64,000 nt of DNA from Amoebophrya sp. A120 (Eukaryota; Protista; Dinoflagellata): assembly GCA_905178155.1 (NCBI GenBank), contig CAJINV010000012.1, positions 2,258,166 to 2,322,165 on the forward strand, written 5' to 3'. Made by a program: the position numbers and the translations under genes. The notes under the pieces are model-generated. The model searched no databases. It had not been told where the DNA came from and was given only the letters and a program-made list of their open reading frames with translations. Shown here piece by piece: positions 7,569-63,400 of this stretch; position 1 is the first letter of the stretch; every line of letters starts with the position of its first letter.

Positions 7569-8580
7569 CTAAAAAGCCAGCTATCCTCTGCAAAAGTATC
7601 GCACTGGTATAAATTATGCAAGTCTTGCATTACAAATCTTGCTCCCAGGAAAGCAAATCAGCATGACAAATTCCATTTCTCGCGCTGAGGAAATTTGTAA
7701 TGCAATTTATACTAGTGCGTTAGTTTTGCAGTTCATACCAGCGACGCCCCCGCATCCAGTCGCCCGACGACTTTTTTGAAACCTAGCTGCCCCAGAATCG
7801 CGTTCGTTTCCTCCAGGGATAAACCCTTCCGCATCGCTCTTCTGATCGCCAGTTTCCGGGGCAGATCTTGGTAGTACTTCATCTCTTTAAACGCCTCTTT
7901 CGCCTCAACAAGCGCGTTTGTGTCGCTGATTCCATTCTTCACGATTTTCGTGATCATGTGCTGTCTTTCCTTGACCCGCCTCTCCGACTTCCTCCGGAGG
8001 AACTCCGGGTGGGATTGCTGCAACTTTTCCATTATGAAATGCAAAAGCATCGTAGTCGTACTAGCAGCAATCGCATTACAAATTATTGGCTCAGCATCAC
8101 AAATGGAATCTCTCATGCTGACTTACTTTGAAAGAGCGATTTGCCATGCATAAACGCGATTACTTTTACGACGAGTACGATACTTTTGCACAGGATATCC
8201 ATGCAACCGCGCGAAGTTCCCAACCCGATTGCGAGGGAATTTCGGAGCGATTTCTTCACTTCCTGGTCGTCTAGCAACGTGCCGAATTGAAACGCGGTGG
8301 AGGAGAGCAGTCGGTTCGTCTGCGTTAGTGTCTCTTCCAAAGAGGACAGTCTTGGTGGCGGCTCGTAGTTGTTATTGGCATTGTAATCGTTTATCGTTGT
8401 GCTAGTACTTCGAGCAGCTCTGGGCGACGAGGGTGATCCGGCCAACTTCCCGAGCGCGACCGGGAGTTTCGGGACCACCTGGACTTCGTGGAGCTCCGGT
8501 GGGGTCCGCTCGCCGGTTTCCAAGCGCGGAGTCGACATGGCGTCATCGTCCTTGCCGGCGTCTAGTATCGAGGTGGACAT
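7569..8580 (-). CDS. Hypothetical coiled-coil protein, paralogous to the central part of gene 14432-19894; two introner insertions; start uncertain
   Basis: Removing 8033-8197 and 7582-7737 (each plus one repeat) gives ...TSRGCMEKLQQSHPEFLRRKSERRVKERQHMITKIVKNG...ASLAF*. Confidence 0.7.
7582..7737. mobile_element. Introner/MITE family A
   Basis: Ends tatcctctgcaaaagtatcgcact...agtgcgttagttttgcagttcata; 5-bp direct repeat ccagc. Confidence 0.92.
8033..8197. mobile_element. Introner/MITE family A (opposite orientation)
   Basis: Ends tatgaaatgcaaaagcatcg...cgatacttttgcacaggata; repeat tccat; removal restores C-M-E-K-L. Confidence 0.95.
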
Positions 8581-9686
8581 GGCAGAGGGACTTTGTAGGC
8601 TGAAGTTTGATAAAACAAGTTGAAGTTGTACGCCTGAAAAAGATAATAGCAACAGCTCCAAAACAAACACTGACTGGGGGTCCCAGTGGCGATCTACTGC
8701 CGGGGGTACCGGGTTGGGGCGAAGTATGTATTTGAATTTCGTGCTGAAAATCTTATTTAATTCTAGGAGTTGTACAGGCTATTGTGTTCTTTACAAATAG
8801 CCGTCGACCTGACGACGACATGTGGTGGTGAGGCTAGTATTTGATCATGGTGATCATTCTGTTAACTGAACTGCACGTCATCGGCCGTCACAGGACCAAC
8901 ATCTTCGATGACGACAATCAACACACATCTAACCGGCACGAATACATACGAATGTGTGCGACGCATACACTTGTTGGAACGAAACAAAGATTGGACGAGC
9001 GACAAATTCGGAACGACAATGGTCATGGAGTTTGCACGAAACAGGCACTAGAGAACCGAATCAGACTGTGTTTTTTGCTATGATTTTATCTTTATTTGAA
9101 GACTCGATGCCGCCCTGCTGCAGCACGCCACGCCCGGAGAATACCAGTTTTTGTTCTCCACCAAGTGCCATCCTGAGGCCGAGCACACTTGTGACGGTGG
9201 CAAGTAGAGCCATTCGAAGGGGATTGAGTTTGATACTTACAGTGTCGTCTTAATTTTCATTTGCGAGAGGATATTTGTATTTACTTGTTTATTTGTTCGC
9301 GTGCTTTATTCTTAATATTGGAGTAGTGCATCTTCGGTAGGGGTACTGCTCTTTCCTGAAGCTAAAAAGCGCGGCCGCGTCTGCAATTTCGAAGAAATAA
9401 CTACAACAGAGGAAACAACCCATGACAGGCGTTCCTCTGCGTCGCACGTGCTTTCGCAGCGATAGATGCGCATTTGTATTGCAACAAGTACTTGTGCGTG
9501 CGAACTAAGATGTTGAAAGGAGAATTGTGGTGCCGTGTCTTGATCTTGATGTCCCCATGAAAGTGTCGTCCGCATCATATTTGCTATTCGTGATCGTTCT
9601 TCAAAAAAAATAGCGCGCCATTGCCTCAATCAACCCTTAACCACCCGCACGAAAGGACGGGGCGGCACGGGGGTTCCGCCTCCTCG

Positions 9687-9947
9687 TATCAAACGCAAAA
9701 GTGTCTGGGTCTGGAAGCACGGGAGTTTGTCATGCTCAGCTAGCATGACTCTCAAGTCTGTCATGCAGCACGTTATCCAAGAAAAGCTGCGGCTTTCTGT
9801 CATGCAAAAACGCAGTTTGTCATGCTGAATAGACAACACGTAGCAAGTCAGAAACTTCTTGTCATGTTGAGCCGTCACTTGTGGCATCCTCATGATTCGC
9901 CACTCAGCATCACAAGTTTCTAGACCCAGACATTTTTGCAACCCATA
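9687..9947. mobile_element. Introner/MITE family B, outside any confidently called CDS
   Basis: Ends tatcaaacgcaaaagtgtctgggtctggaa...ttctagacccagacatttttgcaacccata; repeat cctcg/ccccg. Confidence 0.9.
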
Positions 9948-10197
9948 CCCCGCTGAAGAAAGCAAAAGCACGCGGCGCCGGGGGCACCGCTCTCTTCGCG
10001 GTAGTGTCCGACGCTCTTTAGCTCAGATTCAAAAAATATAAAAACAAATCAAATTTGATAGGAATACGAGACTTCTTTAAAATTGATTGAGTTTGGCGTG
10101 CTCGGAAAAAGACATTATAACTTTCATTCGACATTGACATAAGTGATTTACTCTATTCATATTCTTGAGAAGATTACATGCATTTGAAAAAAAAAGA

Positions 10198-14431: not shown

Positions 14432-17400
14432 CTATCTGCCCCCATCAAGAAACGGGTTCACTTCCACCTGAACCTGTGCGCTGTCTAGCTCATCCTCGGC
14501 GTAGTGGTCTAAACCCCGTCGGCGTCTATCGTTATACTTGTTTGGATTATCGCCACTATTGTTCACGCCCAACACCAACCTCTTTTTGCTACTGCTACTA
14601 CCCAGCAACTTCTTCTCTTTAATACCGGCGCTCGAGGTTTGAAGATTGTCAGCACCCGCGCCGCCAGACTTGCTTTGCATCCTTTTATACAGCTTGTCGT
14701 ACGTCATTTCCAGCAATTTCACCATCGCCAACGACTCCTTTCCTGAGCCTTTTGACGAGTTCTTGCCGCCACGACCATACTTGCTTCTTCGCTTGTTTTC
14801 CCCATTATGTCCAAACTCTTTTTCCACTTTCATCGCGATTTTCTTTTTCATCTTCTCCGCCTGGGCCGCTTTTTTCCGCTCGAGTTTTAACTTCTGTTCA
14901 ACTTTCGTCAACTTCTCCTCGAAGAATTGCTTCTGGTCCTCGATCTCCTGTTGGAGCAAAAGTTTCTCCTTATCGTGATCGCTGACAGATTTCGTGTTCT
15001 GGTAACTCTTATCAAGTGCAAATATTTCTGGGTCTAAAAACTTCTGATGCTGGGTGGCGTATCATGAGGAGGCCACAAGTCCTGGCTCAACATGGCAAGT
15101 TTCTGAGCTGCTTCTAGGTGTTGCGTATTCTGCACGACAAACTGTGTCTCTGCCTGACAAAATATTGGAGCTCTTGGGTCATGTGCATGAGAGATTTCAG
15201 AGTCATGCCAGACAAGCATGACAAACATGCATTTTTCCAGCCCCAGACATATTTGCACTTGATAACTCTCCTCCGCTAGCTCTTCCTGTTCGCGGAGAAA
15301 TCTTTCCCGCTCCTCTAACTCCTCTTCCAAACCCCGCTTGAAAACAATCTCCTTCTGGATCTCCCTGTCAATCTCATCCTGCCGGGATTCGAAGGTCCTG
15401 TCTACTTTGATGTCATGCGGTTTTTCTAGATCATCATCGAGAGCATCCTGATTATGTGCAGCCAAGAGATGAAGATGATGTCGGCTTTCTTGCACATTTG
15501 TCGTCACCATGAGCTCCTGGAGTTCCAATCTCTGCTTCAAAATTTCCTCTTCCAACTTCCGACTGACAGCCCGCTTTTCTTCCAGAAGCTCCTTATCCTT
15601 CTGCGCAATCTGGATCTTCTCCAGCAGTTTCCCGGTTTCCACCTTCCCTCTTTCAATCGTCTCATTCAAGTCGTTCGTCAGCTTGGACGCTTTCGCGGAC
15701 GCTATTGGAGAGAGGACGGAGGCGGCGGGGGAGAGAGGTTTATTTTCACCAACTTGAACAAGAACTTGTTCGGGGGCTCCTCCTGCGGTAAAATTTTCAT
15801 CTTCGGGTAAAATCATCTTCGTGTTGTTATCTTTCGAAGTTAGCACCACACTGCTCGCACTGTCCGCCCCAGACAGGATATCAAAGTCGTTGTAGTAGGC
15901 CACAGCACTCTTTCCTCCTCCTCTTGGACTCGGGGCTCCGCCGATCTTCTTCGGCCCTCCACTGGGAGATGATGACGTCATCGGAGACATCCCGCTATTC
16001 AACCCAACGTTCCCGGTCTGCCCGGTTGTTCTTAATTGTCTCCTTCGCGCCAATTCCGCGTCTAATTTCGAGTTGTACTTGTCCCACTTATCGGTTTCTT
16101 TCGCCGCTACAATTGCGCTCGCGTCCTCGATGCCCTGTTTCACCATGCTCGTGATCGCCGCCTGTCTCTCGATCGACCGGCTCGTCTATCCTGAGTAAAA
16201 ACGTCCCCACACCAGAGTTGTCATGCAAATGTGCAATGACAGGGACATTTGTATCGCGCAGCTCCATGAGAGGAATTTCCAATCGTCGTGCTTTGGAATC
16301 TGTCATGCTGCAAACAGGATGCGAAAGTGGCTTTCTTATGCGCCTTCTCTTGCTAATCAGCACTACGCTGCAGAGGGGAAGAACTTGTCATGCACAGCTC
16401 CCAAAGCTTGGAGATTTGTGTTGCTAGATTCCCAACTTGACTATGGGGTCGTGGGGACGTTTTTACAAACGATATCGTCGCTTTCTGTTGCAACGAACTC
16501 GGGTGCGTCCGTTGCAACTGCTCCATGGCACCGCGGGCGCCTAGAGAAACGGAGAGACTTTCCCTCGCTTCCCGTAGCAACTTGTCCAGCCCCCGGAAGT
16601 TCCGGTCCTTCGCCTGGTCGCGCGCCTCGTGGCGCCGGATCACTTCTAAAGCGGTGACGAGCGGCTTGAAAGCGGACACCGTGTCCGTTTTCGCGAAGTG
16701 CTCGTCGAACAGCACCCTGTTCAACTTCCCCAAAATTTCCAGCGCGGACAAGTCGTGCGGGTCCATCCTGTTGTCGATAATGGACTGCTGGATCGCCGGG
16801 TTGTTCTGGTAGCTGTCCAGAAACCCGTAGGCCTGATTAGACAGCTTCCCCAGACCCGGCACGGCTCGCGCGTCCGCGCTCAAGGGCAGCTGCGGTGCTT
16901 GTCCAGCCTATCCTGAGGAAAAATGTCCCCACACCAGATTCAAGGTGGGAAATTTGCTAGACAAATCAACCAGCTTTGGCTGTTTCGCATGACAAGTCCT
17001 CTACCCTCGTAGTGTAATCCTGTTTAGCTAGTTCGGAAGCTGCATCACAGATCTAGCATATCATGCTGATTCTACCATCACAAATTTCAAAACACGAAGA
17101 GAGCATGTCTCAGATGGGGCTCCGCATGAGAAACTTTTCTGGCATACAGATTTGCATGACAACTCTGGGGTGGGGACGTTTTTACTCAGAATACAGCCTG
17201 TAGATTCATCATTCCCGGTTGCATCATCTGCGCCGTCTGCCCAACCGTCGTTAGCCGCATCTTCGACCCCGCGACACTAGCCGCCCATTTCGACGGCAAT
17301 CTCCGCGACAACCTGCTCGCGACGGAGTTCGCGCACGACCGCACCATCTCCGGCATGCTCGGGGTTCTTCGGACCAAAAAGTAAATCGGCTTGCTGACCT

Positions 17401-19894
17401 CGTTGTTCATGATTTTCTGGCCCAATTTGTCCGCGTTTTCGGCCGTGACTAACACGTCTTTGATCGCCACAATCCTATCCCCTACCCCGAGAAAGCAATC
17501 CGAGCCCCAGCTGCCCTGCGTGACGGACTTGATTTCCAGATTCCCGGAGGAACCGGAAAGCTGCAAGCCTAGTTGCTTCGACGTGTTGTACTCCAACTGT
17601 GCGTACTGTCTTTCGTACCTCTCCCGGAAGAAGACAAACCTGGCCGAGGGCTCTCCCGATTGCCGCTTGGCCATCGTGTCTTGGATTTTCTTGATGATCG
17701 CGTCGTCGGGGGATTCCTTCGAGAACGTCTCCCACTGCTGCACTGCGGTGATCCTATCCTTGTAAATCTGCACCAAAATGTCGTTCATCTGCACGCCCGC
17801 GGCCGTCGACCGGTTTTCCGTGGAACTGTCCACGTTGATCACCCGCACAAAAGGAAACGCCGTCCAGTCGAGCTGAAACCCAAACAACCGGTGCAGCTTT
17901 TCCCGTGAGTTCAGCGTCGAGCTGTTCAAAATTTGCGCATCCAGGGATCGTTGCTCCCAACCAGTCAACCCTAATTCCTTGACATCCTTCGCGGAAGCGA
18001 GGTAGGGAATTTGGAACGGGATACTAGAACTGCCTGAACCACTGCCAGATGCCTTGTTTCCACCGGGCGCACCACTTCCACCTTCCTCCGGCTTGCCCCG
18101 GGCACTGGACGGACGATCGGCTCCGCTCCGCGCACTGGACGGGCGGTCGTTGCGACCGGGAGATGGAGTAGGTGATTTATTACTACCCCCAGCGGGTTGG
18201 TCCGGGATTTTTGCGTGGTCGGACGCTGGTGATTTCGAGTCGTCCACTTTCCTTCTCCATTTCTCCGGCAAATCGCGCTTCACATCCGTCATCCGGGAAA
18301 ACGTCAGTTGGTCGAACTCCTTCGCGCGTCTGACCAAGTAATGCTGGTTGGCTTTCGGTTTCTTACACAATTCTTCTATTTTCTCCGGCTCCTTCTCTGC
18401 CAGAATGTCGTTCAAAAGCACAATGCTGTCCCCCTTTTGCAGCCCTCTTCTGTCCGCCCAGCCGTTGGGTTTTACATCCAGGATTTTCTTCCCGGAAACG
18501 CTCATATCCAGCTCGGGCACGTCGGATTTTAGCTGCACGTAGAAATTCGCGTACTTCGCCCGGAGGAAGAAAAAACTCGCGATTACCTTTTCCTTCTTCA
18601 TCACCCGTCGGCCAATTTTCGCGATCACGGCGTCATTCGGCGAGTCTTCTGAGGGGGCTTCCCAACTGGCGACCTGGGTGATCCTTTCCCCACAGATGGA
18701 GAGAATCATGTCCCCGACCACCACTTTGGCCTTGGCCGTTCGTGTATCAAATGCAAATATGTCTGGGTCTGGAAGGATGCGAACTTGTGATGCGTGGTGC
18801 GGATCATACAAAAATCTGTGGTGCATGACTTGCAAAAGGTCCCCATTTCTAGCCATGCCGAAGGGGCATTTCTCATGCAGAATAGGCATCACCAAGGGGC
18901 TGCAGAACCTGTGATGCTAAGCCCTGCATTCGAGACTTGGCGGAGCTTGGAAAAACTGCATGACAAATCTCAGAATCTTCCAGACCCAGACATTTTTGCA
19001 TTTGATATCGTGACGGCTGCCCGTCGTCGTTGGTGTCTCGAGCCTCCGCGTATCCACAGTAAATTTCCCGTACACGTACAAATGCGGTCTCTGCATGACA
19101 AAACTGGGCTTCGATCCTAGTCTAGCATGACAAGTTTTACGCTCCAATTTGGTGGAGTTTGTGATGCATGTTGTACATGTACGGGAAATTTGTATTGCAT
19201 ACCGCGACGTAAACCTTCGGGAAAGCCGTCCAGTCCAGCTTCATCCCGAACAATTTGAGAAATTTTTTGTCGGAGGGGATCGCTTTGTCCTTCAGCGTAT
19301 CGAAATCGATGGAGCCCTGCTCCCACCCGGTCCCCTATGCGTTGCAAATACGTCTGGGTCTGGAAGGTTGCAACTTGTGATGCTGTCTTTGGATTCCAAA
19401 AAGATCTGCATTGCATGACCAGCATGAGGAGTAGGCTTTGTGCTCCGCGGAGAAGGCGTTTGTCATGCGGAAGAGGAATGAGGAAGCGCTCTATCTGTGA
19501 GTGATGCTAGACCATGCATCACAGGCATCATGGATCACGCAACATATGCATGACAAATCTTGCAATCTCGCAGACCCAGACATATTTGCATTTGATATCC
19601 CCCCATACTCGGCGATGTTCTTCACGCCGGTCAGGTAGGAGTATAACGGTGCACAACTCCCCCTCCCCCTCATTTGTATAGCCTGAACGGCAATACAAGC
19701 ATCAGCAAGAATGCCGGTTTTGCACGACAAATTTGCACTGGAGTATAGTGCTATTGGGGCTACCAGAACTTGTCATGCAAACAGTGCCACGAAACAAAGG
19801 GTGGATTGGGTGTTTTGCATGACAAATGAGGGGAAGGGGAACTTGTGCACTGTCATAAGGAGGGCAGGTACGGGGGTGGGGCGGATTTGGACAT
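14432..19894 (-). CDS. Large protein with internally duplicated PDZ-like N-terminal unit and C-terminal coiled coil; 7 introner insertions
   Basis: ATG 19894 (MSKSAPPPYLPSYLTGVKNIAEYGGTGWEQ). All 7 element removals are in frame. PDZ-like segments DVKPNGWADRRGLQKGDSIVLLND and SVTQGSWGSDCFLGVGDRIVAIKD. Confidence 0.85.
15010..15264. mobile_element. Introner/MITE family B
   Basis: Ends tatcaagtgcaaatat...atatttgcacttgata; repeat actct; removal restores E-E-S-Y-Q-N. Confidence 0.95.
16187..16474. mobile_element. Introner/MITE family G
   Basis: Ends tatcctgagtaaaaacgtccccac...gtggggacgtttttacaaacgata; repeat tcgtc. Confidence 0.95.
16909..17193. mobile_element. Introner/MITE family G
   Basis: Ends tatcctgaggaaaaatgtccccac...gtggggacgtttttactcagaata; repeat cagcc. 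Confidence 0.95.
18745..19007. mobile_element. Introner/MITE family B
   Basis: Ends tatcaaatgcaaatatgtctgggtctggaag...cttccagacccagacatttttgcatttgata; repeat tcgtg. Confidence 0.95.
19051..19201. mobile_element. Introner/MITE family C
   Basis: Ends tatccacagtaaatttcccgtaca...tgtacgggaaatttgtattgcata; repeat ccgcg. Confidence 0.93.
19336..19597. mobile_element. Introner/MITE family B
   Basis: Ends tatgcgttgcaaatacgtctgggtctg...cagacccagacatatttgcatttgata; repeat tcccc. Confidence 0.95.
19642..19857. mobile_element. Introner/MITE family F
   Basis: Ends tataacggtgcacaactccccctcccc...ggggaaggggaacttgtgcactgtcata; repeat aggag. Confidence 0.93.
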
Positions 19895-20997
19895 GATGGT
19901 CGTGATAGATTATCAAGCGACGTTGACGTTGGGATTGGACTAAAGGTCGTGGAGTTAGATCATGCTAAGTAAAGGCACCATACAAATCTAGTGAAGTGAA
20001 AACAAAAAGGAAATACATGCTTGCCGGGAAGGGTATCATGGGTTGTACAACAAATGCAGCACATATTGTAGACTACTAGAACTAGACAAAGAAACTACGA
20101 AGAAATATCTTGGCGGGTAAGGGTATTGCTGAAACATGGTCGTGAGGTCCTGGTGAAAAAAGTTTCAACAAGGCAGACGCAATTAAAAACTTAGACGTAC
20201 ACTTTTCTGATAAACAAATCATACGAGTCCTCGGTTCGTTCGACCTGCACTTTATCAAACGGAAGATGGACGTGGTGTCGTGTACGATTGAAGACGAGGA
20301 CTGGACGAGTCGAGCAGTATTAACGACGCATGAATAAAAGCACAACTTTTACGACCGATGGATTCTGTACTGCTACGCGTTTTCGCGACGACTATATCAA
20401 GAACCGAAACTCGTGTGTGGTTTGATTTCAAAACACCGACCGGAGCAGCGCAGCTTTAATACGCACGAAAACGTCAGCGTATGATATGCTGTTTTGCAAA
20501 ACAGTAACGAGACAGATTCGAAATCGCACGGAGGCAAGTGTGTGGTGCCTATGCGTATCCGAAAATAGCCGTATGTGCGCAGCTTGGAAGCAAGTTGTTG
20601 GCTCGATTTTCATCTTGCTATCGCCATTCGTTCTAATCTCCTGGCGTTTCTGAAGAAACAGCGCACAACAAGCAGGTCCTGGAGTTTTAATAGCACTTGT
20701 CCGATATTGAAATTTCAAACCCGTCAAAAATCGTACATATTTATTGGTATTTTTGAGAATCCAAGAACTTGCATGTCAAGCTGTATTCTCTAGGAGACTA
20801 AAGAGGTCAGATCACATACAAGCAGTGAAAAGTTTTTACAAAGTATCTGGAATACAAGTACAAGTAGTCGATAGGGGTGGTCCTGGTCTCCCGGCGGAGG
20901 TTGGCGCACAGAGCAGGTGGCAGTACTAGTTTCATCAGTCTTCACAACCAGAACTTATGACCACAACCTCTTTATTGGTTTTGGTGCTCGATGATCA

Positions 20998-21846
20998 TTA
21001 GTACCTCGCTAAATGTACGTAGTTCGGGTCTCTCGCCCTCTCAATGTCGTACATGGTACCGAGCTCGCCGCTCCACGTTCTTGTATCCGTCATATTTTGC
21101 AAGTCCAGCGCCCGGTAGTTGGGTAACCGATTGTGGCCCAGGAGGGAACTCTGCCCCGCGCCGCTGACGTGATATGACCTGCTCAAACGTTACAATCTCA
21201 AACGTTACAATCTCAAACGTTACAATCTAGACAGAGTTTGGATATCTGTGATGCACGAAGTGCATGATCTAGCCAAGTCTCATAGGACTGCGCATGACAA
21301 GTTCCGGAGTCCCAAACCGCACTACAATCTGCGGAAATTTGTGTTGCAGAAAGTGGAATGGTCTGCGAGTCTGTCATGCTCATTATGCAAGACAAATCCC
21401 AGATTCTATTGTAACATTTGAGAAGATTGTAACGCTTGAGCAGGTCATACGTGAGTCACTTGTTTTCTCGTCCTCTTTTGGAAGTAGTGGTAGACAATAT
21501 CCGGGGTGCAATAGAGGACCATGCAATAGGCGAAGGGGAGTATAGCTGTAGAGATTTTGTTTTGCTTTGTTTTTGTGCTGAGGCTGGGAGTTCAACTTAT
21601 AGCTTTGCATGACCAGAAGAATTATACATACGTACTTAAAGTGCGCCGTTCCATAAAATTAAAAACTTGAATTTGATGCTTCGAAAGTAGAACAAAAACT
21701 GTACCGAATCCAATCAACGCAAACAGCATGACCATCGCCCGGTCGGGGCTGTCTTTGAGTTGAAACCCAGCCCACGCGGATTGGACGGACTCCCAAAAGG
21801 AATTGAACCCCATGGCGGCGAGAAAGCCAGTGCTTACGACCACCAT
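20998..21846 (-). CDS. Small hypothetical membrane protein
   Basis: GT-AG intron 21546-21635 plus introner 21173-21449 give a continuous frame; hydrophobic segments AMVMLFALIGFGTVFVLL and ILPFAYCMVLYC. Confidence 0.75.
21173..21449. mobile_element. Introner/MITE family H with subterminal 15-bp tandem repeats
   Basis: Ends tatgacctgctcaa...ttgagcaggtcata; repeat cgtga; ctcaaacgttacaat x3 at about 21182-21226. Confidence 0.95.
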
Positions 21847-40632: not shown

Positions 40633-41204
40633 TTTCAGAGATAAAGAACTGAGACTGACGAGGACAGCGACTACACTTCTCAAGCATGCTACTTTGAAAT
40701 ACGCACTTATGGGCTCAATCGTCTGAGTCAGAAATTTACTTATTTCACAGCATGATGGACCTAATGGCAAACCAAAGTAGCAAAACGACAGGGAACAACA
40801 AAGCACATTTTTCGTCACCGATGGCGCACAGCCCGCACGCAGCCACGGTAGCCTTCTTGACGAACGGAACGCACAACACGCGCTCAACGTCACGGCAAGC
40901 AGCAAAATAAACGAACACAAAGTGAAAGCGCCGAGCTCCCGGACACAGGCACTAGCCAATAGGCACAATGAATCAAGCACACCCGTGTCACTGGTTCGGT
41001 TATGCCCTTCTTTCATAATTTTGATCTGAAGTGGTTATGTGCATTGTCGCTGCATTTTTCGTCGATAGAAAGGAGGATATTGGCGTCGTAAAAAATAGCT
41101 CCGGAAGAACAGCTGTCGCTTGTTTGCTAGCGCTCGTTCTCGTCCGTTATGAGTTAGCAATCAACGTAAAAATCACCGTGGTACTAGTCGCAGTTTCAGC
41201 TCCT

Positions 41205-47305: not shown

Positions 47306-48309
47306 TCACGCACAGTAGACCCACTCTCCGTTCAAATACACGCGGGAAAGCAGCTTTCCCCGGCCGTCTTGGGTCACCATGGTCATGCGCTTGAAGCGGT
47401 TTTGGGTCAGGTAGCGTTCCGCATTCGGCTTTTATCAAAAGAAAAAACCCCTCCTCCCCATATCGAAGCGGAAATCTGTGATACGGGATCTGTGTACACA
47501 AATCGGCTCTGTCTTGCAGTAGAGGACTGCAGGCAGATACAGAGCGGGAGTAGGGGCCTTTTGGTGTAGGCGTCAAGCAGGGCAGGCATATCCTCCGCAG
47601 GCCCTAAAGCATTACAATGGGCATGCAGGACACGGCAAGCTTTTTGGATTTGCGTTCTTGCAATACAGAGACGATTTGTGGTCTCCTATCAGCATCACAA
47701 ATTTTCAAAAGTATCCTGGTTTGGTATGGAGAGGGGGGATTTTTCCTCCCAATAGCTTTTCCGGCCAGGCCTCCGGGGCCGGTTTCAACGCAGTACCGGA
47801 TTGGGTGCGGAGGAGGGTGGCTTGGCTGTGGTAAATGTAAATGATGTATACAACATAGTGTGGACTAACATGAACGAAGGAAAGAAAGTTTGTTTCCTCT
47901 ATCAAGCTAGGAGATCAGGAGTTCGAGTTTGTAGTGGGAAAACAGCATGACAATGAAATACGTGTGATTGGAAAACCAAAACAGCATGACAAATAATAAA
48001 TACGTGTGATTCTGTTGCTTCTCGATGAGCTCCGCATATTTCTTCTCCGCTATCCTGTGCAAAAGTATCGCACTCGTAGTAATTGCATTCATGCATTACA
48101 AATCTTTCATTTGAGGTAAATCCGCATTGCAAATTTTGTTTCTCATGCTGAGAAAGTTTGTAATGCATTTATACGAGTACGATACTTTTGCAATGCATAT
48201 CCGCGGACTGTCGACACTTCTTCTCCTTGGTAAACATGTACTTCCGCCAGGCGTCGTCTAAAAGCCAATTCTCGACCAAAGGCCCTTTGTTCGGACGCGG
48301 GACGGGCAT
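47306..48309 (-). CDS. Small hypothetical protein, 4 exons
   Basis: MPVPRPNKGPLVENWLLDDAWRKY...EWVYCA*; introners 48051-48199 and 47433-47754; GT-AG intron 47826-48003. Confidence 0.8.
47433..47754. mobile_element. Introner/MITE family D
   Basis: Ends tatcaaaagaaaaaacccctcctccccata...tatggagaggggggatttttcctcccaata; repeat gcttt. Confidence 0.92.
48051..48199. mobile_element. Introner/MITE family A
   Basis: Ends tatcctgtgcaaaagtatcg...cgatacttttgcaatgcata; repeat tccgc. Confidence 0.95.
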
Positions 48310-51070: not shown

Positions 51071-54000
51071 TCACTTGCTCTCGGTCTTGTCGTCAAGAAG
51101 ATCAGGAGTACTAAATCTCTGTTCGGCGGGTAGTCCGAAGTTCTTTACCAACAGTGTGTACGTCGGGTCATCAGACTTAATCTCTTTCTCGACCCAACCT
51201 GCGGTGTCTCGTTTTTTTTTTGTGCCCCCATCCACCCCTTCCATGTGCTTATGTTTACCGCATTCGAATTTCGTTTTTAGCCAGACTTCTCGCTGTACTT
51301 GTCTAGGGTCCGACCAAGCCAAATCGGACTCCGCCATAGAGAGTTTCACTTCCTGAGCCACCTTGTCGTCGTCCTTTATCGCCTTTACCGGCTGAGCAAG
51401 TCTTTGCACGAAGAGCTGCAGGTCGTCGATCTTCTCACGGCGCGTTTCCCCATCCATCGTGTGACCATCTTTTCCTGTAGCTGTACCTACTTTCGCCTTC
51501 AATCGGTGTTCACTCAACTCGTTTTCAAAATTGCTGAGCGCGCCTCGTGCAGAGTTCTTGACCTCTACCTTGCCGTAGTCCGCGCTCCCCTTTTTGGCCT
51601 TCACAGGCACCATGAACTCATCCCAAAACTTTTCGAGAAACACGAGGCACTGGTCCGGATTCCTTTGGAGGAGAAGGTCAACATCGTGGACGCCCAGGTC
51701 TGCGCTTCGCAGCGCATCAAGAAGTCTGGCCAAATACCTAGCCGGGCGATCTCGGCCACGCGAAGAAAAAGCATCGCTGTCCGCTTCCATCTCCTCCACC
51801 AAATATTCCGGGTTTGTTTTGGGCTTTTTTCCATCGCTAAAGGCTCTTTGAACCAACATCTTGATGTGCTGTTTTATATCTTGTGGCCCCTCACTGCTTC
51901 GCCCCAAACGCGGCATTGTAAAAAGAGGCGGAGTTGGGTCTTTACAATTCTCGCATCCGCCTAACACTTCGCGCAACCACGCGGCAGCGGTCGTAGGATT
52001 CCCGGGTTTGGGTTCAAGAATCTTTGGCAGAGGAATCCGGTGATTACCTCCAAAACCGTCGCAAAGAGGCTCCAATCGGAGCTCGCCTGTCCTACAATTC
52101 GTCAGCGCATCTAGGTAAGCTGTTATCTGGTGCGCCTTTCTGTGACCATCCTTGCCCGTCGCGACATCCGTGAGAACCTTCTCCATGAAGTTGGTTAAAA
52201 CATTGTTGCTCGGAAGCTCCTGCAGCCTGTCTCTTTCCGGATCGTAACGAGCCATGTTCCAAGCAATGCTCTCCAACATCTCCTTCCCGTATTCTGCATC
52301 CACGGACGATTTCAATGGCGAACTCAGTAGAGATTTGATTTTGTCTCGGGCTGTGGAGTCGTCCGCTGTGCCCGGCAGCATTACCTTCGCGCCCCCGTCA
52401 AGGGTGAATGGTACAAGATAGTCGGACAACACTCCCGCAAGGGCGCGCTTCCGCTTCTCCTTCAGTGTCACTGATGCGTCGGCCTCGGTACCCGCTGCCC
52501 CTGCGTTCTGGTGCATTAGCGAAAGGGCTACCAGCTCCTTGCCGAGAGTATCCTGTCGCTTCCGTGGACTACTCCTGCTCACAGCATCAGCACCATCAAG
52601 ATCAAGGTCACCTCGTCCAAACCCCGTTTCCATCGTCAGAAAAGCGATCAGCTGCTCATGGGTTGCAAACGCGGATTCTGGTGCAGCTGCGGGTGCTCCA
52701 GAGGTGCTCGTCGTGCCGTAGCCCACCTCGTAGGCGAAAAGCTTCGGCGCCAGAAATTGCAGAAAGTCTCCCGGCGTGTTCCGGGCGTTCCCGGCAATTG
52801 CATTGGTTTTAACCCACGATAACAGAGGGAAACTTTCGGTCGCGGAGTTCTCAGCCGTGGACCCGATGGAGCGAAGCAGAGCAAGGCAAGAATTGTGCTC
52901 GTGCCGCAAATCAGAAATCTTTGGATCTTGGGAGCAAACCGACTTTACAACATCCTTTACGTTAATGAGCATGGCTTTCGCGGTGTCTTTCTCCTCTGGT
53001 ACTGGCCGTGGCAGTGGTTCTCGCGCGGGGTCGACCTCCGGGGCTTGTGGTAGGTCTTCGGTATCGGGAGCTAGAAGATGATCCGGTAAGCTGCTTTTGG
53101 ACGCACCAGGAGCCGCGCCTAGTATCGCCGGTAAGGTCGCGGCCCTACGCGGCGGCTGGCGCTGGGGCTCTCCCTCTGCTGGGTCTGCCTTTGCTGGTGG
53201 TGGTGGAGGGGGCGCGTCCGGTGGAGGTAGTGGTGGTCGTTCTCGTTGTAAGGGTTCCTCGCCGCGACCGGACGATGCTTTCTTAAGCTTTGCTTCTTCG
53301 GGACGATCATGCTCTGTTTCTTCGGCATCACCAGCTGGTGCAGACGCCACAGCCACGTTCTCTCGTCCTTCCTCGCGTGGTGGAGGATCACTACCTGCTT
53401 GTGTGGTGGAAGCGCCAGCATCTGGAACGGTCACGGTAGAACCAGGACCCGCACCGGGAGCACCGCTGTCATCTCCAATGCCCCCTTCAGCAATTGCTCC
53501 TGATCTCGCAAGTTGCGTCTCCAAAAACGCTAGGCGTTTGTGTATCTTGTCAATCCCCGCGGCAATGTGCAACTGGAGAACGGCAGAGGCAGTTGACGCA
53601 ACATCCACGTCCTCCACACCACTGCCTGTCGCCCCCGATTCCGCCTTAACATCACCCTCCGTTGACTTCTTCTTGTTTTTTCGAGAACTCGAACCAAAAT
53701 CCGCATCGCTTTCCGACGACTTCTTCTTGTTTTTGCGACGCGACGACCGGCGCTTCTTGCTTCCACCCCCGCCCTTCAGTTTCGTCTTCGACTTCTGTTC
53801 GTCTACTTGTTTCTCGCCGCCACCTGGCCCATCAGCAGGTTCGTTCTTACTTCCACTTTTTTCTAGCATCGTCGCCCGTTTGTACGCCGCCACGACCTCC
53901 TTATCCAACTGGTCGTCCTCGTCTTTCAAGAAGGCGTACTGGTTATGCATTGCAAACATGTCTGGGTCTGGAGGAGTGCAAGGTTTGCCATGCTTGTCTG

Positions 54001-54300
54001 GCATGAGTACGGAGTTTGTGATGCGTGTCTAAGAAAAGACGCTTTCGCTTGTCATGCAAAGTCATGCGAAAAACGCAACACAAAGCCTCCCAAATATTTC
54101 TCATGCTTGGCTGTGCATTAGAGATACAGAGCATTGGTGTTCCCGATTCACAGCCCAGCATAAGCATTACAAGTTTCCAGTCCCAGACACATTTGCATTT
54201 GATACTGATCCTCAGTCGCCGTGGCGGCGACCAGCACGGGCGGTGATAGCAGGCAAGAGGTGCTCCCGGCGACCCGTACGAAAGTTTTGGTACGAGGCAT
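51071..54300 (-). CDS. About 990-aa hypothetical protein with weak signal-like N-terminus, basic NLS-like repeats and Pro-rich linker
   Basis: ATG 54300 (MPRTKTFVRVAGSTSCLLSPPVLVAATATEDQ|YAFLK) after removing 53944-54204; remainder is one ORF. Confidence 0.8.
53944..54204. mobile_element. Introner/MITE family B
   Basis: Ends tatgcattgcaaacatgtctggg...cccagacacatttgcatttgata; repeat ctggt/ctgat. Confidence 0.93.
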
Positions 54301-55209
54301 GTTGTCGAAGGCGGTGTAGTTGACGCGGTTCGTTCTTTTTTTTTACTGGTTATTTCCAGAACAAATATCTTTTACCAGGGCGTCAAGATCAAGAATGAGA
54401 ATGTCCGAGAGGACGATTCCAGACTGCAGCGTGTTCTTCGCTGTCTTGCGTTGTTTGTCGGAGTTGCTGTTTGTGTCGTCTAAACGTCGAAAAACGGAAA
54501 TGGATGAGCAGCTACTTCTACTTCGCCTGATCGTGAGCTCTGCTGGTTTGAGATGAGAGTGGTAGACAGCTGCGAGTGGTGCGTTTATATGTCGAAAATG
54601 GAAAATGAGTGAGTACTCGTTCTTCAAACAACAGGTTTTTTGGGTAAGGTTAAATGAAAATTGTGGGATGTCGTAATTTGTGAAAGAATTCCTCATCGGG
54701 AAACTGTGTCGTTAGTTGCAAACGAAGATAAGAAATACGAGCACCAGGCCGGAGAAAACAACATCAACCCTTTGCTCGCCTCTTATGGCCTGCGAGTGAC
54801 TGTCTGACATATACAGAAAACATATGGGGTCGTCAACGTTGTATTTGCCTCAGACCGTAAAAAAAATTCTGCGCGCATTTTTTCGCGGCGCAAAGCTAGT
54901 AAACCTGTGCACGCTAGTGAGGGGCTGACTTGAACGCGGTTTGTTTTACCTAGCTTGTCAGCAACACTGCTCCAGTAGGTAAGTGAGTATTGACGCGAAG
55001 GGGGGCGGGGCGCTGGGGGTTCTTCTGTGGCTGATGTTTCCACCTAGAAAACGCCGGGCGCGCGCAATATTTTTCTCATTTTTCCGGATTGCTCTCTCCG
55101 TGCAGCTATTTGCCGCTATGGCCTGGGTCAGCGTGTGAGGCTGGAAACGCCCCGCGAGATGTCTACACAGGCCCTGGCCTCGTCGTCTCTAGCAGGCACC
55201 ACGCACACA

Positions 55210-55420
55210 TGTTGGCCGCGAAGGCCTTTCCGGAGCCCTTCCAAAAAGGGGGAGCCGGAGGGGTGCCCGGAACCCTAAAAAAAGCCTATTGCTTTTTCTT
55301 CGAATCACGATGGTGCTACCCCTCCCCAAAAGGGGTCCCGGAACCCCTCTGGGAACCCTTCCCGAAAGGCTCTCGGGCTTTTCGCATTTTGCCGAAAAAG
55401 CCGCAAAGGCAAAATGCGCG
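55210..55420. repeat. Unclassified GC-rich repeat/hairpin block
   Basis: Recurrent ggaaccc and aaaagggg words; perfect 11-bp stem cgcattttgcc (55383-55393) / ggcaaaatgcg (55408-55418). Confidence 0.5.
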
Positions 55421-56579
55421 CGCGCCTGCCGGTACACGCGTGCACAGCTGCGCGACATTAGAAACAAGGGGAGGCGCAGCCGCGGCCGATTCCGTTTGCG
55501 CCCTCGACTCCGACCGACTTGCACAGATTGAGGCCCATTGTCTAGCGGCTGGACTGCAAGAGGACCTGCTGCAGCACCTCCTGGCTGCAGGGGCGCTCCG
55601 AGGCAAGTCCGTGGAGCAGCAGCGCCGGATAGCTCCGTCTTTAGCCACTGAGAAGCGCTGCGAATAGGCTAGCGATTTCATTAGGTGTGCAACATAGTGG
55701 GGGGCTATACGTGTGCAACATGATGGATATCAAATACAAAAAAAGGCGCGCGGAAAATTTTTTACAGCTTGAGGCAAATACAAGTTTGACGACGCCATAA
55801 AACAACATCAAGATTGATACGACGACGCTTACTTGCTTTTCAACGCACGAGACCGAAACTTGCACGTTTATTTTGGGGTGCAGTTCACGACGGACAAACA
55901 TTTTTAAACGCAGTACGACAAAATGAATACGACAAGATTTGTTCTGGCTCACTTACTTACGAACGGGAACGAAAGCGACACTGGACGAGATACAAATTAC
56001 GGTCCACCGACTAAGCAGCCCTTGAAGTTGGACCAAAAAGGTAGAGTCCACTACTGCTCCATGTTACCGACACCGAGACGATATGGGTATGAGAAAAGCG
56101 AACGTACTTACTTTGGCTTTGCTCAATAACAATAACAAGCACGATGAGGCTCCATGAAACGGAGCAGACGCAGACCGAACGGCTACTTACACGCGAAGGT
56201 GACGAAGCAATTCGCTAGAAAAGAGCGGGTCCGCCCTGCTTTGCTGCTGGTACAGCTTCTACTTGAAGAGTTCTTCTCGATGTTGTCGCTTTTTGCGTTC
56301 GCTGCGATAATTCTTCGAAACTGAATGTTGGAGTTGCGGTCTTTATTGTTCACAGGCTAGTAGAAGCGCGGCTTTGAACTTTTATGACAATCGCTGCAAG
56401 GGCTGCTTCTTCCTTTCAAAGCAAAAAATCTATGTTTTGCTCCTGCTTTAAGGATTTTTGCGGCACATCATCTGGCGGCGTAAGTAGGATGCTCATGAAC
56501 GAACCTCACCTCGTCCCTCTCCCTGAGCAATTACCACTTCACTCGTGGTGAAAGCCAGCACGACCTGCTCACCCAAAAC

Positions 56580-58506
56580 TCACATCATATCATCCCCTGG
56601 CATGTCGAACTTTCCAATGTTGTCAATATCGGACTGCTTCGGCCCGCCCGGCTGGTACGCTTTTGACATTGCCTCGCCGATGATGCGTTTCATGCTGTCG
56701 TCACCCTCATCGTACATGTCTTTCATCATGCTCATGATCCCGCCCGTTGCATCCGCCGCTTTCCCCTTGTTCGCCTGTTTTTCGTCCTCTCGCTTTCGCC
56801 GCCCCCCGACGTCCGTCCAGGTCTCGTAGCTGATAGTGTTTTTGTAGTTGTACTTTTGCATGACAAGATTTACAGCTCCCCCTCTTTGTGCACCATGCCA
56901 CAGCAGATAAACGTGCTGAGTAAAAGTAAATTCCCTTGCAGCTATAGAATTATTCTATCATAGTCTTTCGAGTTCGAAGTACAACTCAAATAGGAGATGC
57001 ATCAAAGAAAAAATCCTTTACTTACCCCATCGTTCCTCCCTCCACCTTCTGCATGGTGATGAGCACGTGATTTTTCTTCACCGAGTGCGACGATTTTGCC
57101 GCCACGATGTCGTTATGAAATGCAAAAGAATCGTACTAGTATAAATTGCATTACAAATTCACGTAGCATTACAAATCAAATTTGTAATGCGGATTTGCCT
57201 TAGTAAAGAGATTTGTAATGCATAAACGCAATTGGTACGAGTACGATACTTTTGCACTCGATAGTCGTGCTGCAACGCGGTTCTTCTGAACCGGTAGTTT
57301 ACCCTGTTATGGGTGTGTCAGGATTGAAATCGACAAAGTTGAAATAGTTTGCGATGCATAAAATGCAACGCAGAAATTGTCTCTATTGCAAACGATGCAA
57401 GGGAGGCAGATTACAAGCCTGCTGTGGGGTAGAAATAGAGCTGCTAAAGTAGCATGACAAAAGGCGTCGTCCTTACCCAAACAGCATGACAAACTGGATT
57501 TAGGCTCTACCCAAGTTTGTCATGCGCCACTTGGAAACTGGGCTTCAACTGGCATCCATTTTATGCATGGCAAATTATTTCAACTTTGACGATTTCAAAC
57601 CTGACGCTTCCATACCCGTCCAGGTTTTTCACTTTCACATCCAAACTCATCCGGGTGAACTCCGTTGTGATGTTATCAAAATGAAAAATCCCCCCACCCC
57701 ATACGCGAACTTGAAATTTGTGATGCAGATTTGTGGCCCTGGCCACAAATCTTCAGCTTTGTCATGCTAGAAGGGAAAAGATGCGGACTGTAGTGCTGGT
57801 TGGCGTGGGCAAGCCTTGCATCTTCAGCATGACATGGGGTAGCTGGGAGTGGGAAACAGCATGACAAATTGCCTGCAAATGAGGCCACAGCTGCGTCTCT
57901 TGGCCTTCTAGCATTACAAGTCGACTTGTGTACTCAAATACAGCATCACAAATTTCGTTTTCGATATGGGGAGGGGGGATTTTTCATTCTGATAGATGTT
58001 TTCGGCTGGCAGATTTTCCACGCCTTTGAGCCGCAAGTCCACGACGACCTCCTTGTCGTTGTACCCACCGCCCTTTTTCATCTCGTAGATGCTCACCTCG
58101 GTCCACCTGAGAGATTTTTAGGAGTTTGTTTGTATGTAGGGAGTTTGGTATGCAAAATCAAAATGAGCCGTTCCTCTTCCTCGTTACATCAGGAGATCAT
58201 GGTGGTCATCTTCAAGACACTACTTACATATTAATATTTCCAAGTAGAAGAGGCCACTACTTACTTCAAATTCGCGTCCGATGAGGCGCTGGCGCCAGCT
58301 GGCGCTGCACTCGCCTCGCCGTGGGTCTTCAATACGTCCATCGCACCCGTATCGTCGTCCAACACCACCGGTTTCGGCCGGGTTTTCTCGATCTGCGCCT
58401 TGCTCTGCTGGATTTGGCTGGTTAAGAAGTCTTTTACCAGTGGTCTCTTCGCGTGTTCCACGAGCTGCTCGAGCTCGGCGACATCGAGTTCCGAAAGGCC
58501 GCCCAT
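56580..58506 (-). CDS. CACYBP: Calcyclin-binding protein / Siah-interacting protein (CS and SGS domains)
   Basis: DVAELEQLVEHAKRPLVKDFL, SLDVKVKNLDGVNYRF, GIMSMMKDMYDEGDDSMKRIIGEA; three introners plus GT-AG introns at about 58107-58264 and 56830-57025. Confidence 0.92.
57114..57263. mobile_element. Introner/MITE family A (opposite orientation)
   Basis: Ends tatgaaatgcaaaagaatcgtact...agtacgatacttttgcactcgata; repeat gtcgt. Confidence 0.95.
57308..57614. mobile_element. Introner/MITE family E
   Basis: Ends tatgggtgtgtcagg...cctgacgcttccata; repeat cctgt/cccgt; removal restores LDGVNYRF. Confidence 0.95.
57674..57994. mobile_element. Introner/MITE family D
   Basis: Ends tatcaaaatgaaaaatccccccaccccata...tatggggaggggggatttttcattctgata; repeat gatgt. 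Confidence 0.95.
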
Positions 58507-60443: not shown

Positions 60444-63400
60444 TTAACCACAGAGGGACTGGGCCACGAGCGCGATCGGCATAGCCAGCAAGGTATGAAT
60501 TGCAAAGGCGTCGCACAAGTAGTAATTGCAATACAAATTCGCGCAGCATGACAAATGGAATCTGTAATGCTAATTGACCTTGGGAGCGAGCAGATTTGTA
60601 ATGCATGGCTGCAATTACTACGAGTATGATACTTTTGCAGTGGATACAAGGCAATCGGAGTGAAGATCATCATCGGGATGCAGTGCAGCTCGCCCTTCCT
60701 GACCGCGGGACCGTCCGCCTTCGCGGCCGGCTTGGCCGCGGCCGCACCACCGGCGGTGGCGGCCGCCGCCTTCGGCTTACCGTCATCCAGCACCCCGATC
60801 ACCGCGTCCGGGGCGTACTTTCCAATCACATCCGGGGGGTGGATCATGTTAAACTCCTCGGTTGCGTCCTTACCCGCGAAGGTCAGGATCGCCAGCGCAC
60901 CACCGGGGTGGTCCGGGAGAAACTTGGTCACATCCAGGACCTGGCCGTTCACCACGACCCAGCAGTCTGTTTTTAGTTGTTTTGATCATTTTGTAAGTAT
61001 GTCGTCAGCGATCTCGTCAATATATTGTGGTCCAGCAACATCATGCTCATGCACTTGCACGGCGGATTCCGCAACAAAAATTTAAGTTTAACTCGTGGTG
61101 TGCATCTTCGATTTACATTGCAGAGTTTGTACCACGAAGCAAACAATCTATCACTATCATGCATGAAAATCGATGTTATATATTACCCTGCTCCGTAGTG
61201 TGCTTGGCGACTTCCGCCAGGGTGTAGCCACCGCTTCCCGCACCCGCGGCCGCCGGAGCACCCTTGTTCGGCTCGTCCTCGTAAGAACCACCGGACAGGG
61301 CGGACTTCTCGGTACCGCCGCCGGAGATACCGCCACCAGAAAGCTCGCGCAACGAGGTAGCCTTCAACGACGAACCGAGCATATACTGGGCGCAGCTGTT
61401 GTTGAGGTGGTTTTTGATTCAGGATCTTTCTTGATCTTGTCATGCTAAACAGAAGTGCGGCACACTTTGCCTCCCCCTTTGTAAACGGCCGCAGATGGCT
61501 GTCACGCAGGGAATGTAGGTCAGGCGATCGTTGCACTAAAGAGCGAAAGCGTCATGTCAATCATGCATGAGAAACATCAAAAAATATGCTCTAAAAGTAT
61601 ACGCCTTTCCCGCGACGCGACCGTAGACCACGCAGTCCAGCAACGAGTTGCCGCCCAACCGGTTGTTTCCGTGGACGCCACCCATCACCTCACCCGCCGC
61701 GTACAGACCCGGAATGACTTTTCCGCCCGCGCCAACCACCTCGGAGCTGGTGGTGATTTCCAAACCGCCCATGCAGTAGTGGATAATCGGGGTGATGATC
61801 GCGACGTAAAACGGCTCGGAGGCGAACTGGGAGCCCGGGATGATGTTGTGGAAGAACTTCTTTCCCGACCCGGTCTTGCCGGACGGCTCGTCCCAGGTCT
61901 TGCCGCTGGGGTAGGCCGGGAACGGGCCACCATCCGGATCCTTCTCCATCTTCATCGCAGCCTGGTAGTGGGCCTCGTGGGCGGCAGCCATGCGCTCCAC
62001 CGGAACACCGAGGTCCTTTGCGAGAGCGGCACCAGACTCGTAGAACTTCATCACGCCACGCCCGGTGTAGTGCTTGCAGTGCCAGATGATTTCTTCGGAG
62101 GCAGCCTGAGGTTTTAGGTGGAGGTGGTTATGATGTTGACTACGCTTGTTTTTTTGGAGAGAGATGTTCAAGCGTGATGGCATTTTTCTGACTGTTACTG
62201 GAGAGGCACTGATCATGCATGCCCGCAAATTGCACATAAAATGTATTTACAGTTTTACCTTGTTCAAGCACAGACGGAAGGGTCCCTTGTTCTTCCACAT
62301 CTCCCCGGTGACGTAGTCGCGGCGACCCAACTCGTTGGCGAACCGGTTGCCATCGGCATCGAAGATCAAACCACCGACACCGCGCAGCGCCTCGGCGGCC
62401 AAAAACTTCACCTTCGCATCGGGGTCCTTGGGGTTCACCAAACCGGTCGGGTGGACCTGCACCCACTCCAGATCGATGGTCCGCGCACCAATGGCTTCAC
62501 CCATCTTGATACCGTCACCTGCGGATTTGATGGTATTGTTTTCATTCTACTGTGATGAGCAGTAGATGAACACGACCCATCTTCAAAAATAACGATCATC
62601 ATTCTCTTAAGGTTGTACAGCAGACGAGCTGGAAATTTAAACTACCGGTGCAGTGCTCGCCATTCGAGGTGGGCAAGTGCATCAAGTCCGGGCGGTACTT
62701 GGCTAGCAGAGAGTCCTGGGAAAAGTCGGCGCCGAACCCGCCAGTGGCGATGATGACCGGTCCCATTTCCTTCAGCATGGAGCCACCCTTTTCGTAGTTG
62801 ACCCCGACGACCTTGCCTCCCTGGAAGATCAAGCTGGTGGCCTTCGCCTTGGTGACGACCTTTGCCACGGACCCGTTGGTCTTCTCGGCGATCTTCTCCA
62901 CCATCTGGATCAAGGCGTAGGTGATGGTCATACCCGGGAAGCGCTCCTTACCACGGTGGGTACGCGGGGCGGAGTGACCACCCAGACGGGCGACCAGAGA
63001 GAGGTCCAGACCGAACACGTCCATCAACCAGTCGCAATCCGGACCAGAATTTTCGGCGAGGACCTTTTTTTGTATTGCAGAATTTTGCATGATGCGTTGT
63101 CGTAGCTGTTCTGTAAAAGTTCAAGTTTGGAATGCATATGACTAATGAGAGCTCAAAGTTGTATTGCAAAAGTCACATATTATACCTTGACCAACTCCGG
63201 CTTCTTCGCACCACCCTTCAAGCAATCGTTGGTAAACAGCTCCACGGAATCCTCAATTCCATTGGCGCGTTGGGTCTGTAGTGGTATTGGTAAGTGGTTT
63301 AGGCATGACAGACTTGATCCATCATCTTGGTTTCACATCTTAAATTGCAAGCGTAAGCTTGCAGTTTGAATGAGACATGCAAATTCCCGAACAAAATCCA

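Follow-up and report, generated by a model that had tools for sequence, protein, structure and literature searches.

Introner elements with TAT...ATA ends are missing, with five flanking nucleotides, from likely Amoebophrya mRNAs: constraints on a possibly structure-guided removal reaction

Introduction

The subject of this study is a 64,000-nucleotide stretch of the genome of the dinoflagellate Amoebophrya sp. A120 (contig CAJINV010000012.1, positions 2,258,166 to 2,322,165; the window, meaning the whole stretch analysed), whose minus-strand genes are interrupted by short introner elements that are missing from likely messenger RNA (mRNA) contigs. We note that the elements and their removal without a sequence signature are a known phenomenon, published in 2021. 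Farhat et al. (2021, PMC7789003) described A120 introner elements whose inverted repeats read TAT, about seven variable nucleotides and AAA, which form hairpins and lie between direct repeats of 3-5 nt (5 bp in the legend to Figure S19). They reported 29,850 members in 1,954 families, found 65% of introns to be non-canonical, and did not find U1. Removal was supported by RNA and lacked a splice-site signature; the mechanism was left open, and the splice position relative to the hairpin was described as variable or unknown. The main text of that paper holds no report of a retained repeat copy, of element orientation or of a reverse-transcriptase (RT) control, and its Figures S19-S25 may bear on the cut. 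An integrase-like introner family with terminal inverted repeats (TIRs) has also been reported in A120 (PMC12130899), and the related literature includes bioRxiv 10.1101/2025.08.15.670264. Among the titles and abstract beginnings searched, which covered few subscription journals, we found no report of the removal mechanism.

As far as that description goes, the elements of the window do not differ in kind from the A120 introners: ends, repeats, hairpins, families and co-oriented genes are the same. Transcript-supported non-canonical removal, TAT-n-AAA TIRs, repeats of 3-5 nt and repeated families are all present, and the identification as Amoebophrya introners offered in an initial annotation of the window holds. 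Four features were not found in the parts of the literature covered, namely a retained upstream repeat copy, an unused GT-AG pair (at the element starting at 38615), removal in both orientations, and repeats of background composition.

Comparable systems exist elsewhere. [quoted passage not shown] The machinery is unknown there, and circular excised products have been reported. The euglenid code N3CDG...CH'GN5-6|R is, however, not followed here, CDG standing at +4 to +6 in 1 of 32 sense ends in any allowed register (by inspection). The spliceosomal introners of Polarella, Symbiodinium, Aureococcus and Micromonas (bioRxiv 10.1101/2020.10.14.339549; PMC9860276) likewise have TIRs and target-site duplications (TSDs) and cause no net mRNA change, and some classes work in both orientations. 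As described in those sources they carry or recruit GT, GC or GA and AG and so have restricted targets, whereas targets of the window type have background composition; here a GT/GC/GA donor with an AG acceptor can be placed, in any of six registers, in 19 of 142 copies. Among transposons, IS3EU/GingerRoot elements are reported to share TA..TA and occasional TG..CA termini but to have a TSD of 6 bp as compared to 5 bp here, where 6-mer matches are at chance; the TSD of Ginger2, 4-5 bp, is like that of the elements here (PMC10045372).

Results

Transcript evidence came from contigs of four runs (X1-X4) from one sample in one study, presumed to be RNA, which contain about 60% of the sequence words of 32000-41900. 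Compared with the window at 99% likeness over 26500-41500, they cover 11 of its 32 elements, with no listed joint for the other 21. There are exactly 11 joints in this interval, one per element, and each skips the element plus 5 nt and no other letter, the removed length that had been predicted. Nine joints recur in all four runs, one in three and one in two. From the sequence alone this length would be fixed only modulo 3, additions of 2, 5 and 8 nt all remaining in frame. From a single contig of the open reading frame (ORF) with a C-terminal PPPDE domain all seven elements are missing, and a contig of this gene ends loosely in poly(T) at 35513; the window itself shows no T run at that point, which fits a polyadenylated minus-strand mRNA. 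The covered elements (families F1, F2 and F4 to F7, repeats read in the sense of the gene) and their two main host ORFs, with joint lengths in order, are as follows.

27151..27461, minus strand: F7 element, G-free repeat CATCA; joint skips 316 (311+5; X1, X2)
30450..30717, minus strand: F2 element within kinase motif GTSTYIAPE; skips 273 (268+5)
30777..31028, minus strand: F2 element, CGAGA/AGGGA (two mismatches); skips 257 (252+5); upstream copy kept
31388..31577, minus strand: F5 element, CAAGC/CATGC; skips 195 (190+5); upstream copy kept
36194..36343, minus strand: F1 element within the PPPDE domain; skips 155
36613..36760, minus strand: F1 element, G-free repeat ACATC; skips 153
37061..37210, minus strand: F1 element, GGCGA/AGCGA, sense 3' end ACA; skips 155; upstream copy kept
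37482..37631, minus strand: F1 element, G-free repeat CCTCC; skips 155
37741..37890, minus strand: F1 element, orientation opposite to 37061 in the same transcript; skips 155
38615..38774, minus strand: F4 element, AGGTA/AGCTA, 3-nt bulge in the 3' arm; skips 165; upstream copy kept
39885..40119, minus strand: F6 element, TGCAG/TGCAG; skips 240 (X1-X3)
29729..31965, minus strand: host protein-kinase ORF, 504 codons, 3 elements; one spliced contig in X1, X2 and X4
35870..41034, minus strand: host ORF with C-terminal PPPDE domain (PF05903), 1329 codons stop to stop, 7 elements; one spliced contig

Four covered elements have repeats whose two copies differ, at sense positions 1 and 3 (30777), 3 (31388), 1 (37061) and 3 (38615), and these natural markers place the cuts. 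At all four the upstream copy is retained, leaving 2, 2, 4 and 2 ambiguous letters. This confines the 5' cut to the 0-2 nt preceding TAT and the 3' cut to a point 3-5 nt beyond ATA. At 38615 an equal-length GT-AG register three bases before TAT would yield AGCTA; the contigs read AGGTA, and the available GT-AG register is therefore passed over. Removal is independent of orientation, exon sequence and exact repeat: F1 elements in both orientations (36613 and 37741 as against 36194, 37061 and 37482) leave one transcript, and precision is undisturbed by the arm bulge at 38615, the ACA end at 37061 and the three-of-five repeat at 30777.

It had been argued from G-free repeats that removal cannot use GT/GC/GA-AG ends, and both the repeats (CTCCT, CATCA, ACATC twice, CCTCC) and the argument stand. 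Ten of the 11 covered joints cannot be GT/GC/GA-AG; the exception is 30450, whose exact product a GT-AG register would yield as well. Every covered element has in-frame cryptic GT-AG pairs no more than 30 nt away (1-13 each), and apart from 30450 none corresponds to the assembled form. In the three registers allowed by the cut window, 9 of the 142 copies have a GT/GC/GA-AG pair.

Several refinements of the cut position were considered and set aside. Positions 4-5 of the repeat carry none of the 8 mismatches in the window, but a ban on mismatches there was rejected for position 4 by six cases among the relatives described below; position 5 is rarely mismatched, accounting for 1 of 32 mismatches among confidently oriented copies (post hoc p 0.007) and for 5 of 45 with weakly oriented ones included, and is a lead only. 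A fixed ruler from the inner stem is disfavoured by the 3-nt bulge at 38615. The shared motif GCAT[GTC]ACA was dropped as a branch site: on inspection, F1 and F2 carry it at different places and on different strands with respect to the 3' end. Dropped too was N-TATCC as a donor resembling those of U12 introns. About half of the ends read TATG, and the minor spliceosome is reported absent (PMC7789003).

The elements appear to remain in DNA. In a DNA-like run (X5, a single run whose kind is off record and of which we can speak through its listed joints and contigs), all eight listed contigs pass from exon into element at a flat single-copy depth of 41-46, and the joined form is not among the joints or pieces listed. 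Raw RNA runs X8 and X9, labelled as the same species, were uninformative: their reads, 95 and 4 in number, fell on elements throughout and never on exons. X8 has reads 95-99% like both ends of the F2 copy at 30777-31028, with no exon coverage there, so that another strain or organism represented in X8 carries the F2 family too.

Further copies were sought with an F2 terminus pattern in a metagenome collection, of which a portion (12 of 64) was scanned. All 165 loci recovered (L001-L165) fall in one assembly, JACKZZ01, which has relatives of all eight multi-copy window families and retains more than 200 copies in place; viral contigs gave no match to the F2 end. JACKZZ01 is a close relative, not an independent lineage. 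One exon of L043 matches a protein of Amoebophrya sp. A120 at 100% identity, and another gene on an element-bearing contig matches an A120 protein at 92%. Among 219 elements with TAT-like ends, 168 have exact 5-bp repeats and 29 have one mismatch, and 4- and 6-bp matches are at chance. From 227 candidates in the 165 loci, 201 had TAT, TGT or CAT ends with at least three of five repeat positions matching, and 110 of these were confidently oriented by a coding model, which in the window calls minus for all 30 elements inside ORFs and plus for the two outside. Around the 110 sites base composition at 21 positions equals the coding background (lowest p 0.046). Neither the base before TAT (G in 39, expected 34.3) nor AG after ATA is biased, and 14 of the 110 have a canonical pair in any register. 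F2 occurs in both orientations, 22 and 31 (53 clearly oriented of 79 copies). At L043, a plus-strand gene, 16 of 16 homologues covering the site (22 hits) have the glycine coded by the upstream copy, with no indel; in a PDB alignment the junction residue of L043 was not visible. For L005, the residue in the A120 match (85-92% identical) is the one that the downstream copy encodes at repeat position 5, which weakly favours a cut 1-2 nt before TAT; a coding change in a fast-evolving gene is a possible alternative. An orthologue search with L055, for placement at repeat position 4, found nothing.

The elements of the window end in TAT...ATA, are flanked by 5-bp repeats and appear to be MITE-like insertions. 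A strict scan for sequences that start with TAT/TGT, end with ATA/ACA, lie in an exact 5-bp direct repeat and have TIRs matching at no fewer than 12 of 20 positions finds 25 of them spanning 7582-60646, compared with 0-3 (mean 1.0) in 20 shuffled controls. A scan for known termini adds seven whose repeats differ at one or two of five bases (9687, 30777, 31388, 37061, 38615, 53944 and 57308); a looser TIR search gave mainly noise. The initial annotation, which counted 31 elements in eight families, all between 5-bp direct repeats, was right that they are real. The count now stands at 32 in nine families, with 25 exact and seven imperfect repeats: F1 (~150 bp, n=11), F2 (~255 bp, n=8), six families of two, and a 977-bp singleton, F9. 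TAT at both ends, with TGT in two copies, is borne out, position 1 being T in 64 of 64 ends, position 2 A in 62 (G in two) and position 3 T in 64. A at positions 11-13 (50, 54 and 60 of 64 ends) fits TAT, about seven variable nucleotides and AAA.

To call the families unrelated, as had been done, was an overstatement. All have TAT[CG]-n-AAA ends, and an internal TGT[ACG]ATGC motif occurs in eight of nine (95 matches over the 7.8 kb of element sequence, 16 over the 56 kb that lie outside). These common features suggest that the families, with interiors otherwise mutually dissimilar, are probably one transposon clan.

Thirty of the 32 elements lie inside minus-strand ORFs, those at 9687 and 54823 lying in no ORF found, and the host ORFs are all on the minus strand. 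Deleting the element plus one repeat was said to restore the frame, and it does so in these 30, although, as noted, 2 or 8 nt in place of 5 would keep the frame too; the elements at 21173, 47433 and 48051 fit a full ORF only with one inferred ordinary intron. The resulting long ORFs hold 7, 7, 3, 3, 2 and 2 elements, and several hold one. The host genes look intact, as had been claimed, with GTSTYIAPE, KYD and LDGVNYRF spanning the rebuilt junctions. In a Pfam scan of 21 exon or ORF pieces, ten with hits, the exon pieces of Pkinase (profile 4-89, 98-133, 160-258) and PPPDE (2-64, 68-138) are collinear. The remaining elements and two further hosts are these.

7582..7737, minus strand: F1 element, GCTGG/GCTGG in the sense direction; two codons separate it from the ORF end
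8033..8197, minus strand: F1 element, ATGGA/ATGGA
9687..9947, no strand assigned: F2 element, imperfect repeat that reads CGGGG/CGAGG on minus; not spanned by any ORF found
15010..15264, minus strand: F2 element, AGAGT/AGAGT
16187..16474, minus strand: F3 element (~286 bp), GACGA/GACGA
16909..17193, minus strand: F3 element, GGCTG/GGCTG, orientation opposite to 16187
18745..19007, minus strand: F2 element, CACGA/CACGA
19051..19201, minus strand: F4 element, CGCGG/CGCGG
19336..19597, minus strand: F2 element, GGGGA/GGGGA
19642..19857, minus strand: F5 element, G-free repeat CTCCT
21173..21449, minus strand: F6 element, TCACG/TCACG
45084..45237, minus strand: F1 element within motif KYD, GTACG/GTACG
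45340..45589, minus strand: F2 element, CAAGA/CAAGA, sense 5' end TGT
47433..47754, minus strand: F8 element (~321 bp), AAAGC/AAAGC
48051..48199, minus strand: F1 element, GCGGA/GCGGA
53944..54204, minus strand: F2 element, ATCAG/ACCAG
54823..55799, no strand assigned: F9 singleton, 977 bp; lies upstream of the 51074-54342 ORF and is spanned by no ORF
57114..57263, minus strand: F1 element, ACGAC/ACGAC
57308..57614, minus strand: F7 element within motif LDGVNYRF, ACGGG/ACAGG; GT-AG possible one base before TAT
57674..57994, minus strand: F8 element, G-free repeat ACATC
60494..60646, minus strand: F1 element, CCTTG/CCTTG, near the end of the FAD-binding/cytochrome b5 gene
14435..19909, minus strand: host PDZ-domain ORF, 1240 codons, 7 elements; outside the transcript comparison
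60447..63589, minus strand: host FAD-binding and cytochrome b5 gene, 1 element and 6 inferred ordinary introns (5 GT-AG, 1 GC-AG)

Folding of 31 sense elements (the 977-bp element left out) predicts a stem at element positions 8-24 with mean pair probability 0.8-0.96, and positions 4-7 are often mismatched. The earlier picture of paired TAT...ATA ends therefore went too far; how weakly the terminal pairs are predicted is taken up below. Rfam gave no match in the window.

Discussion

We consider it about an even chance (probability roughly 0.5) that the elements are removed by a structure-guided, non-spliceosomal cut-and-join reaction. More tentatively, and in a more specific form, Amoebophrya might possess a second mRNA splicing system that works without the spliceosome and has converged on the euglenid one, in which staggered cuts are measured from the ends of the TAT...ATA hairpin (1-2 nt before, 3-4 nt after) and exon sequence and ready GT-AG pairs are ignored. 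A single machinery may serve all families. In such a scheme, a putative DDE transposase acting in trans would insert the element and duplicate 5 bp; in the transcript the TIRs are predicted to pair at positions 8-24, in either orientation, and would bring the ends together; the RNA would be cut within the span marked out by the imperfect repeats, 0-2 nt ahead of TAT and 3-5 nt beyond ATA, a position that follows the element's extreme ends and, as the products show, needs neither particular exon bases nor an exact repeat; and the exons would be joined, restoring the pre-insertion sequence, as in the products seen. The catalyst may be an endonuclease together with an RNA ligase, with a linear or circular intron released.

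A separate system is favoured by the strictness of the ordinary introns, by the absence of any border drift to G or AG, and by the ready GT-AG passed over. All 12 ordinary introns inferred in the window end in AG, and 98.6% of position-conserved introns are reported to be canonical (PMC7789003). Such strictness suggests two systems, as has been argued for Euglena (PMC12501133).

Several observations weigh on the other side. The transcript contigs are assembled, come from a single sample and study and are RNA by guess, and assembly drops minor forms; no enzyme, intermediate or excised product has been seen. A120 is reported to keep U2, U4, U5, U6 and most spliceosomal proteins (PMC7789003). In the predicted structures the three terminal pairs (TAT/ATA) are marginal, at 0.5-0.6, and at or below 0.3 in five of the RNA-covered copies. 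Host donors read GTA in 11 of the 12 inferred ordinary introns (GTAT in four), and N-T-A-T one base before TAT resembles them. In addition, GT-AG one base before TAT occurs in 4 of 28 imperfect repeats as compared with 5 of 114 others (p 0.075), and this excess and the likeness of N|TAT to GTA donors would fit a relaxed spliceosome.

That alternative is the serious rival, and we think it less likely: a modified U2-type spliceosome without U1, for which the ends would be bridged by the TIR stem, N|TAT would serve as a host GTA donor whose first base is free, and distance (4 nt after ATA), not AG, would fix the acceptor. The N|TAT register does lie inside the allowed cut window and is weakly favoured by L005, and U1 is reported undetected while inverted and direct repeats occur in 15% of canonical A120 introns (PMC7789003); tunicate introners without GT/AG are, moreover, reported to be spliceosomal (PMC11282704). 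Such a donor is hard to reconcile with the lack of G bias before TAT and of AG bias after ATA, with old introns that hold to strict GT-AG, and with the GT-AG ignored at 38615. The 3' ends of the elements are by inspection unlike the A/C-rich host acceptors, and their last ~25 nt are predicted to lie in the stem.

Self-removal of the RNA by a small ribozyme, or ribosome hopping between matching codons of the two repeats, seems improbable. One whole in-frame codon always lies within the 5-nt repeat and an internal motif is common to eight families, as these ideas would have it; against self-removal, interiors differ between families, either strand is removed, and the Rfam search of the window was empty. 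Hopping is further opposed by an in-frame codon that differs between the copies at three of the four covered imperfect sites and by contigs that lack the elements.

About as improbable is excision from DNA in an expressed nucleus or stage, with mRNA copied from clean DNA. The internal eliminated sequences of ciliates are the model for it, and an alveolate host, TA-starting ends, transposon anatomy and orientation independence all recall them; the DNA evidence, besides, is that of a single DNA-like run, through its listed joints. Those listed contigs nonetheless enter the element from the exon at single-copy depth in eight of eight cases, and JACKZZ01 retains its copies in place. The kept repeat copy follows the direction of transcription at four minus-strand sites and one plus-strand site, which microhomology repair would not be expected to predict.

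RT slippage over a hairpin between direct repeats (falsitrons), by which the elements would stay in cellular RNA, is the least credible explanation even though the hairpin between short repeats is its published signature, seen in up to 70% of complementary DNA (cDNA) reads (PMC8240250), all RNA evidence is presumably cDNA-based, and "template switch" and "artifact" have no match in the main text of Farhat et al.: RT copies the downstream repeat first, so that slippage should keep the downstream copy, whereas the upstream copy is kept at four of four imperfect sites, three with just 2 nt of usable homology; the CD19 falsitron is reported to be abolished by disrupting one repeat (PMC8240250), while here a site with two mismatches is skipped and dependence on repeat identity is absent; seven elements are all missing from one contig; and retention would break the conserved kinase and PPPDE domains.

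The imperfect repeats thus serve as markers that place the cuts, argue against a cDNA artefact and show a GT-AG register passed over, and the added value of this work lies in constraints that make the removal mechanism testable with existing raw reads. Whether a relaxed spliceosome or a new RNA cut-and-join enzyme is at work, either would explain how the genome tolerates tens of thousands of coding insertions. If the second-system reading is true, insertions of this transposon clan would be harmless at any site and in either orientation. A scarless, site-independent intron would be a useful tool.

Further observations

Four imperfect repeats give GT-AG one base before TAT (9687-9947, 57308-57614, L026 282-591 and L058 1063-1220), and at L056 and at L058 400-663 AG stands at that place in the upstream copy only; these are possible conversion intermediates. 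Ten of the 12 inferred ordinary introns (for instance 47826-48003, 61362-61604, 63276-63433 and 44564-44674) carry a loosened internal motif (TCATGC/GCATGA and kin; counted with no background control), and four begin GTAT. Such introns may have begun as elements that decayed and became canonical.

In 60 of 110 oriented JACKZZ01 copies (p 6e-6), and in 13 of 28 in the window (a hand count), the first base of the repeat falls on codon position 3. This phase bias comes without recruited splice-site bases, single-base composition equalling the background once phase is allowed for. At L005 2011-2229 and L048 475-802, three extra bases (TTA, TAA) stand between an exact 5-bp repeat and the TAT end.

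Coding sequence is enriched in elements (30 of 32), about half of the element-free window being coding by a rough estimate, and some exons between elements are only 38-54 nt long. The 977-bp element at 54823-55799 has a GC-rich interior, lacks the shared internal motif and has a longest stop-free frame of 210 codons. Three long minus-strand ORFs are free of elements (32428-34872, 41208-43538 and 11390-13612); one encodes a CobW-type GTPase (PF02492, PF07683) and two have no Pfam hits. Positions 1-7500 are likewise element-free; this region is richer in GC, and near 5800-7500 open frames of the two strands overlap.

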